Positions 29,929-30,410 of a stretch of DNA of 64,000 nt are shown one piece after another (within the stretch, counting starts at the first letter, position 1; the number at the start of each line of letters is the position of its first letter). Location: NCBI GenBank assembly GCA_964016885.1, contig OZ024744.1, positions 34,224,001-34,288,000 on the forward strand, in the 5' to 3' direction. The stretch is from Eledone cirrhosa. Its lineage: Eukaryota. The notes under the pieces were generated by a model. It ran no database searches and had not been told where the DNA came from. It saw only the letters and a list, made by a program, of their open reading frames with translations. The position numbers and the translations under genes were made by a program.

Positions 29929-30410
29929 AAGGATATTTTCGAAACAGCGAGTGGGTTTGAAATTATTAGAAATGTAAGCTATCGCCGTATTTTGACTAAA
30001 GAAATTAAAGAAATTATTTAGCCTGATAGTGGGGTTAAGAACCCTCTGAGAAATGGAAAAAGATGAGTATTGACGTACATGGGAGTCGAACCCACATCTT
30101 TGGTTATCCAGACCACTGTGCTACCATTTACACCAACACATCACCCGTCTCTTTCCATTCAAATTAGAAGTTATAAACTTAGCGACTGTAATGTCAAGTA
30201 AGAATATCTTCGAAACAACGAGTGGGTTTGAAATTATTAGAAATGTAAGCTATCGCCGTATTTTGACCAAAAATGTGGGTTCGAGTCCCATGTACGTCAA
30301 TATTCATCTTTTTCCATTTCTCCGAGGGTTCTTAACCCCACTATCAGGCTAAATAATTTCTTTAATTTCTTTAGTCAAAATACGGCGATAGCTTACATTT
30401 ATAATAATAA
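29929..30410. mobile_element. Non-coding element with a unit of about 271 bp, direct and inverted partial copies, carrying a tRNA-like fold
   Basis: 29931-29997 resembles 30202-30268 (direct); about 29970-30102 is inverted at 30268-30400; TA/ATT flanks. Confidence 0.75.
30071..30142 (-). tRNA. tRNA-like cloverleaf (72 nt, GGA in the anticodon position), probably not a functional tRNA
   Basis: GATGTGT-TG-GTGT AAATGGTA GCAC-A-GTGGT CTGGATA ACCAA-AGAT-GTGGG TTCGACT CCCAT-GTACGTC-A; A and B boxes present; T5 run shortly downstream; three G-U pairs in the acceptor stem and U37. Confidence 0.6.

Follow-up and report, generated by a model that had tools for sequence, protein, structure and literature searches.

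Layout of the element and of its family

The window analysed here (64,000 nucleotides of Eledone cirrhosa, contig OZ024744.1) carries at about 30 kb a short two-armed element built like a retrozyme, in which a first-pass annotation had noticed a tRNA-like cloverleaf and no recognisable hammerhead, and this raises the question of how such an element is transcribed, copied and inserted. The explanation that we consider probable is that of a non-coding 271-bp repeat with Penelope-type ends and no hammerhead, served in trans by the reverse transcriptase of a Penelope-like element (PLE) that would copy an RNA started by Pol III and modified by the host.

Self-alignment and inspection of the sequence confirmed the unit of about 271 bp, the direct repeat, the inverted copy and the TA flanks that had been described for this copy. 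The direct repeat (29928-30000 and 30199-30271) measures 73 bp with 94.5% identity and a period of 271, the inverted copy (29962-30104 and 30266-30408) measures 143 bp with 96.5% identity, and TA runs flank the element on both sides. Positions within the unit are given as q, that is 30201 minus the window position on the minus (sense) strand, with a period of 271; on this scale the first base of the tRNA (+1) is q59, G22 is q80, A58 is q115 and the T5 run is q140-144. The following parts were distinguished:

29491..29917: neighbouring two-armed hammerhead retrozyme, a separate element adjoining across a TA run
29928..30271, minus (sense) strand: main arm, one full 271-nt unit and about 70 nt of the next, with its 3' end at the TA run
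29929..29961, minus strand: Penelope-type tail of 33 nt between two likely reverse-transcription start sites (compare the passages on PLE tails in PMC11167929 and PMC8557442)
29944..29988, minus strand: 7-bp stem (29982-29988 with 29944-29950) closing a 31-nt loop, inside which most short-arm 3' ends lie
30051..30068, minus strand: 3' strand of the closing stem, containing T5 (30057-30061)
30071..30142, minus strand: tRNA-derived domain of 72 nt, non-decoding, with a 4-nt variable loop
30082..30092, minus strand: B box (T arm), with A58 at 30086; arms break off just 3' of the box
30121, minus strand: G22, unchanged in this copy, a hypermutable site of the family
30124..30135, minus strand: A box (D arm), its first 8 nt as in host tRNA-Gly(UCC) and Gln genes
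30143..30160, minus strand: 5' strand of the closing stem (18 bp) under the tRNA
30146, minus strand: putative RNA 5' end and Pol III start, 4 nt before the tRNA and 11 nt before the A box
30266..30408, plus strand: inverted second arm (unit q97-q239), stopping 33 nt short of the main 3' end

The hammerhead family of the neighbouring element (29491-29917) also occurs in a chimera with the tRNA-bearing family (L019/L140) and beside an array (L139). The inversion of the present copy does start inside the anticodon arm, as first reported, with its join on an ACCAAA/ACTAAA microhomology; as a trait of the family this did not stand, only 6 of 151 arms ending in that 29-nt zone, which is the background rate.

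A DNA search returned 1982 candidate copies, of which 40 were scored, arrays of about 10 and 30 units included, and a 27-mer of the 3' end gave 597 exact matches against 0 for the control. Copies differ by 2.3% from the majority sequence. For the arm counts, a sample not chosen by length was drawn, 90 loci covering 94 of the first 100 27-mer matches listed; long arms are slightly under-counted in it, since the 6 omitted rows belong to three multi-unit insertions. One duplicate locus, the loci L067 and L070 (TA anchoring not at both ends) and one 20-nt duplicate hit were dropped before counting, and the final set comprised 151 arms from 87 loci. Sister families of 259-290 bp (types of about 260 and 290 bp) have the whole layout in common with the 271-bp family, and a T-arm 20-mer matched 2204 times across all of them, satellite units counted. 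Short non-coding units in tandem, a feature of non-LTR retrozymes, were observed both in the arrays of about 10-30 units and in a 290-bp satellite. Three sequencing runs, used as contigs, bore on the presence of the family only. In locus L067, 143 nt of the unit (q210 to q81) lie within a different repeat, with no TA flanks.

Penelope-type insertion pattern

The opposed two-arm layout was found in 59 of the 87 loci and a single arm in 26. Two zones together hold the 3' ends of 143 of the 151 arms, namely q268-q14 (87 arms; the sampling 27-mer favours this zone) and q205-249 (56 arms). The two 3' start zones of a locus are offset by a median of 43 nt, and by 25-60 nt in 47 of 59 pairs (33 nt in this copy), and TA lies beside 134 of the 151 3' ends. 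The 31-nt loop that receives most short-arm 3' ends is closed by a 7-bp stem in which one C-G pair is changed to U-A across families (4 rows).

The sections of PMC8557442 that describe PLEs name as their marks a 5' copy in inverted orientation, a tail of 30-40 bp and insertion at microsatellites, and part of PMC11167929 presents the tail as what lies between two internal sites at which the enzyme starts. The present family displays an inverted, 5'-truncated copy with partial tandems, a tail of 30-40 bp and AT-rich or microsatellite targets. The two-armed loci, the offset 3' zones and the TA targets uphold the Penelope-type mobilisation proposed from the single copy. Two chimeras with hammerhead retrozymes were recovered, one (L019/L140) with an arm of each kind and the other (L070) switching between the two on the same strand; they point to enzymes in common.

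Similarity at the 3' end to an autonomous partner was sought in one young PLE family (30 copies) and in ten 3' ends of the window and was found in none of these, the best scores being equalled by 27/300 and 36/300 shuffles, respectively.

Several other insertions of the window deserve mention. At 11463-14790 (plus strand) lies a copy of a young PLE-like family with a hammerhead core near its 3' end, at 14628; the family has intact 719-aa frames elsewhere in the genome, and neither piece gave a Pfam hit. Hammerhead cores or PLE reading frames were also seen in palindromic insertions at 15306-15940, 16313-17166, 18965-20296, 21905-23089, 25438-25951 and 26398-28443.

The tRNA-derived domain and its fold

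The 72-nt cloverleaf at 30071-30142 (minus strand), with A and B boxes and a T5 run (30057-30061), was recognised by the Rfam tRNA model (47.1 bits against a gathering score of 29, E 6e-7), by ARAGORN, which called a tRNA-Ser(gga), and in the sequence itself. Its conservation among copies, on which the original proposal had been made to depend, was verified, the cloverleaf being the same in all of them within mutation. The A and B boxes are unchanged from one sister family to another, at an overall similarity of these families of about 75%; divergence among copies amounts to 2.9% in the tRNA part and 3.1% in the body, so the tRNA is no better conserved.

As regards decoding, the U33 of this copy is a minority state, C33 occurring in most 271-type copies, U37 is found in the family, and the anticodon loops differ among sister families. 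Since the family has C33, the loop is unreadable as a Ser anticodon. The features of a functional tRNA (U33, a purine at 37 and an anticodon matching the body) are lacking, and a real tRNA-Ser gene was ruled out by C33/U37 and the variable loops. The isotype comparison was limited to eight tRNA genes of the host and one further mimic, a set of few isotypes with Ser not among them, and gave ungapped matches over 72 positions of 40 with tRNA-Gly(UCC), 40 with Gln, 35-37 with Thr, 29-30 with Glu and 42 with the unrelated mimic. The domain and the host tRNA-Gly(UCC) have in common their length and a 13-nt T-arm core, and the body appears closest to host tRNA-Gly/Gln among the tRNA-like sequences compared. 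A phage tRNA origin was discarded, the only hits having E=2. Long arrays of host tRNA-Glu (period about 1.34 kb) and tRNA-Gln genes were observed at G000:C3:277238566-277334829 and C1:168211720-168275623.

The T5 run lies 8 nt downstream of the tRNA, and a run of T5-T7 is kept in most aligned sister copies, being broken in 4/20. Avoidance of T runs was also considered as a sign of Pol III transcription and set aside (not significant, P 0.16-0.69). The closing stem of 18 bp extends 6 bp beyond T5 and is kept in all sisters; the changes in its leader strand are from A to G opposite U, with pairing preserved. In a fold alignment of 12 rows, two of which were chosen for carrying a D-stem change, 94% of the cells were paired, and two-sided changes occurred at 2 pairs only, a number matched by 195/500 shuffles. 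The cloverleaf is not the predicted minimum-energy fold (-34.9 vs -38.0 kcal/mol), the D-stem pair probability is 0.05 and folding of the whole unit gave a z of -0.88. Taken together, the fold evidence is modest. In some units of a 290-bp sister satellite (L137, G000:C28:19527000-19534000) the D-stem pair G12-C23 is replaced by C12-G23, a compensatory change.

A second tRNA-bearing repeat (L033 and L035-L043) was considered as a relative and found unrelated, with a best E of 0.1. Flanked by TA and measuring about 1.8 kb, this separate repeat has fixed ends and contains an inverted repeat of 160 bp as well as a 5' hairpin, the loop of which is flipped in L043; its tRNA-like gene, with a variable anticodon and its own closing stem, is unrelated to the domain described here.

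5' ends at the tRNA start and in the T arm

Two break-off zones hold 82 of the 151 5' ends, q114-127 stopping 59 of the 127 arms that reach it and q54-65 stopping 23 of 51. Each is 12 times background, while other AT-rich parts of the unit are at background stop rates.

The tRNA start was examined with a pattern for TA-joined ends that sees back to q48. Among the first 100 of 189 matches listed, 35 distinct loci, tallied by hand, had their ends at q55 (8), q56 (2), q57 (7), q58/59 (10) and q60-64 (8), and 0/35 fell at q48-54. The base at q55 is a purine after a pyrimidine and lies 11 nt before the A box, which we take to fit a Pol III start. The RNA 5' end and Pol III start are therefore placed, as likely read from the DNA ends, at base -4 of the tRNA (q55, 30146), and these ends lend support to the Pol III promoter role suggested for the cloverleaf.

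Processing by RNase P and RNase Z in place of self-cleavage had been suggested as well. The tRNA domain would then be a host-processing signal replacing the ribozyme: RNase P would cut at each +1, the closing stem would hold the new 3' end beside the 5' end, and a 271-nt circle would be copied round and round, a scheme that can be added to a Pol III start. We judge it unlikely. Among the 35 TA-joined ends of the listed matches, 10 fit +1 and 7 more could do so with GT microhomology (up to 17/35), but 10 others, at q55-56, carry templated bases upstream of +1 and are not RNase P products, because such a product begins at q59. Hammerhead retrozymes form circles, according to part of PMC7229834, and the closing stem, reaching 6 bp past T5 in all sisters with its pairing-preserving A-to-G changes, would suit such a molecule. 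Seamless passage of arms beyond the tRNA start was counted 28 times, deletions at q52-62 affect only 2/63 spanning arms, and variants are common to arms or units of one insertion ten times as often as to random pairs (90/832 vs 149/15556); the long arms, however, are also explained by a tandem transcript that is long and linear, or by jumping from one repeated end to another. RNase P leaves a 5'-phosphate and a 3'-OH, and its ends are not known to be RtcB substrates. The RNase Z and CCA part of the suggestion left no footprint, 4 arms starting at q129-133 and no 3' end lying at q126-134.

The mid-unit position ascribed to the cloverleaf holds only by permutation: copies beginning at the tRNA start are laid out like a tRNA-headed SINE, although their tail and insertion pattern are of Penelope type and the 28 passes mentioned above continue through the tRNA start. 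The four leader G bases at q52-57 (30144-30149) are changed about twice as often as other G (17/255, p 0.015), which hints weakly at a template junction close to where the RNA starts.

In the T-arm zone, a hand tally of 29 ends among the first 100 of 1536 matches listed, sisters included, gave 1 end at q125, 20 at q119-122, 4 at q117, 2 at q114 and 2 at q104-107. The edge of this zone is near A58. A clean end at q116, adjacent to A58, was seen in no arm, and the peak is at q120-122, where CATG and AT microhomologies lie; a structural stall therefore fits too. A methylated A58 (m1A58) is the likely cause of the T-arm stop, with the exact ends following the microhomologies.

Substitutions at G22 and A58

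G22 is changed in 21 of 95 aligned arms, which include loci from the initial DNA search (T 13, A 5, deletion 2, C 1), against 3.7% for other G. In a pattern search whose matches partly overlap the aligned arms, the first 100 of 560 matches listed include 21 with a changed G22 (T 8, A 7, C 6), its two neighbours being changed in 5 and 1 of the same 100. Sister families, whose D loop of 7 nt lacks one A of the 8-nt loop of the 271-bp family and which have the same letters around G22, show 2 changes in the first 100 of 909 matches listed (p 2.5e-5 vs the 271-bp family). The excess is likely the copying scar of a modified base. To our knowledge, no eukaryotic mark at G22 has been described. In the relevant part of PMC8163159, G-to-T mismatch is a reported sign of m1G/m22G, and the list of 19 modified positions does not include 22; the accessible portion of an archaeal survey (PMC13520502) holds no G22 mark.

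Two other origins of the G22 changes were rejected. A subfamily marker disagrees with the three bases and deletions observed and with the single pair in 15 that has its state in common. An RGYW DNA hotspot disagrees with the sisters, where the same letters are changed in only 2/100; seven other RGYW sites are changed in 3-9%, mostly G>A. Discordance within insertions (14/15 pairs) does not differ from that of ordinary later mutation (742/832), and within-insertion data alone therefore cannot separate copying error from later mutation.

A58 is changed in 52 of 2204 superfamily matches (T 27, G 18, C 7) and unchanged in 104/104 arms of the 271-bp family itself. The A58>T rate is 3.9 times the background A>T rate of the 271-type alignment, and A>G and A>C are not raised. 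A>T is a sign of m1A. The 30 variant loci examined out of 52 were scattered over 271-, 260- and 290-type backgrounds; the pattern fixed 19 flanking bases, and an A58-less subfamily with further changes would be missed by it.

These data also bear on the reading that the tRNA is a captured passenger, the RNA deriving from host or array read-through and the break-off zones from structure and (TA)n microhomology. Both break-off peaks do coincide with AT/CATG/TG microhomologies, the tRNA part is no better conserved than the body (2.9% vs 3.1%), and, in the parts of the two papers concerned, the PLE reverse transcriptase needed no hammerhead cleavage in vitro (PMC11167929) and Naiads without hammerheads exist (PMC8557442). 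It would, however, leave the three-base spectrum of G22 and the A58>T excess unexplained. An A-rich microhomology at q48-53 has no end among the listed matches, other AT-rich parts of the unit stop arms at background rates, and the A and B boxes are unchanged in sisters about 75% alike overall; we consider this reading quite improbable.

Search for a ribozyme

The lack of a hammerhead core noted in this copy was confirmed: none was found in the element, and the doubled majority unit has no CUGANGA on either strand, with one 1-mismatch site on the antisense strand. The family majority sequence, called for in the first-pass annotation as a check, revealed no ordinary hammerhead, and a hidden one, by way of a permuted unit or the other strand, was sought and not found. 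Rfam returned no ribozyme up to E=10 in four tandem loci, and it does score hammerheads elsewhere in the same window. The type I hammerhead carried by each unit of a non-LTR retrozyme is thus missing here. That the cutting is done by some unrecognised ribozyme in another part of the unit is highly improbable: the searches, which covered the Rfam families and the hammerhead core, gave no hit, and the only third pile-up of 5' ends, located at the base of the closing stem, is weak (2.2-fold, p 0.03).

Proposed mechanism

In the Pol III and PLE explanation that we favour, transcription would start at 30146 (q55), 4 nt before the tRNA-derived head, and a fraction of the polymerases would read past T5 into the start stem-loop. 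Read-through is needed by this promoter model, since T5 lies 8 nt after the tRNA and is a tight terminator in vitro; the passages on T5 in PMC3141230 report that it stopped human Pol III fully in vitro and can leak in human cells. The host would modify the RNA like a tRNA, and the PLE enzyme would prime at both ends of a (TA)n break and copy toward the RNA 5' end. About half of the arms would stall at the T arm, probably at m1A58, and be joined via short microhomologies; about half of the remainder would end where the RNA begins and yield SINE-like monomers. For the other arms the template would be longer, circular or re-entered, and copying would continue into the preceding unit and restore tandem copies with the 50-nt spacer and leader. 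As q8-54 is kept in all families, the lineage would pass through such longer templates, which might be a tandem transcript, a jump between repeated ends (Cassandra-like) or a circle.

A fuller scheme, in which a ribozyme-free retrozyme combines the Pol III start with an RNase P cut, a stem-held 271-nt circle, rolling reverse transcription, m1A58 and a D-loop-dependent G22 mark, appears to us rather doubtful. If true, it would imply a guanosine mark at G22 that the usual eukaryotic map lacks and that a single additional base in the D loop switches on.

Under the Pol III and PLE explanation, a PLE passenger would require no ribozyme, a point of relevance to the function of the PLE hammerhead, and through the thousands of young copies the DNA would map both the start sites and the modifications of an RNA not yet sequenced.

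Comparison with known systems

Animal non-LTR retrozymes, which are non-autonomous PLE derivatives, resemble the element in their non-coding 170-400-nt units, their tandems and their PLE dependence, as far as described in parts of PMC7229834 and 10.64898/2026.07.22.740005, and hammerhead families of the same genome form direct chimeras with it. They possess a hammerhead, whereas the present element has a tRNA-derived domain with A and B boxes instead. The element also resembles the non-autonomous Chlamys/MRC1 and the hammerhead-less Naiads, which in the relevant sections of PMC8557442 have pLTR-like partial tandems, an inverted 5' copy, a 30-40-bp tail, microsatellite targets and no canonical hammerhead. 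These generally resemble their autonomous partner at the 3' end, while no such partner was found for our element in the search described above; in the accessible portion of the same paper the sole mention of tRNA concerns selenocysteine.

The TRIMp3 elements Helenus, Cassandra and Ajax also carry a small-RNA-derived Pol III promoter in the terminal repeat of a non-autonomous retroelement, and Cassandra transcription starts in one repeat and ends in the next, according to the corresponding sections of PMC10886601. They depend on LTR machinery (PBS, PPT, TSD), whereas the present element has PLE ends; its 5' ends are variable and its arms opposed, unlike the two LTRs of TRIMp3. The word Penelope is absent from the accessible portion of the PMC10886601 text. 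The SINE-like hammerhead repeats of schistosomes are likewise tandem retroposons with an internal Pol III promoter, but keep the hammerhead (PMC6765202, passages on these repeats).

With respect to SINEs, copies starting at the tRNA resemble a 215-220-nt tRNA-derived SINE as outlined in part of PMC10886601, and the tRNA-derived head with A and B boxes stands, as in SINE2, at the RNA 5' end, which is here deduced from DNA ends. The element differs in having no LINE-like tail or poly(A), two opposed arms, a circularly permuted unit and T5 right behind the head; instead of the LINE-type 3' tail and single-armed insertion of SINE2 it has PLE-type ends. The tail and the two-armed pattern, both Penelope-type, thus speak against the conventional 5' tRNA-headed SINE that had been named as the alternative outcome. 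Judged on sequence features, the element would seem to work like a non-LTR retrozyme, with a SINE-like head, and to parallel Helenus/Cassandra with PLE in place of LTR machinery. As a counterpart of SINEs and of Helenus/Cassandra, the element would then make Penelope a third retrotransposon class parasitised via a tRNA-derived promoter.

No tRNA-bearing PLE passenger was described in the titles and abstract openings found, a search with subscription journals and Repbase outside its scope. In the accessible portion of PMC13282606 the family is not described, and 893 unclassified SINE families are reported in a repeat library, which may contain the present family unnamed.
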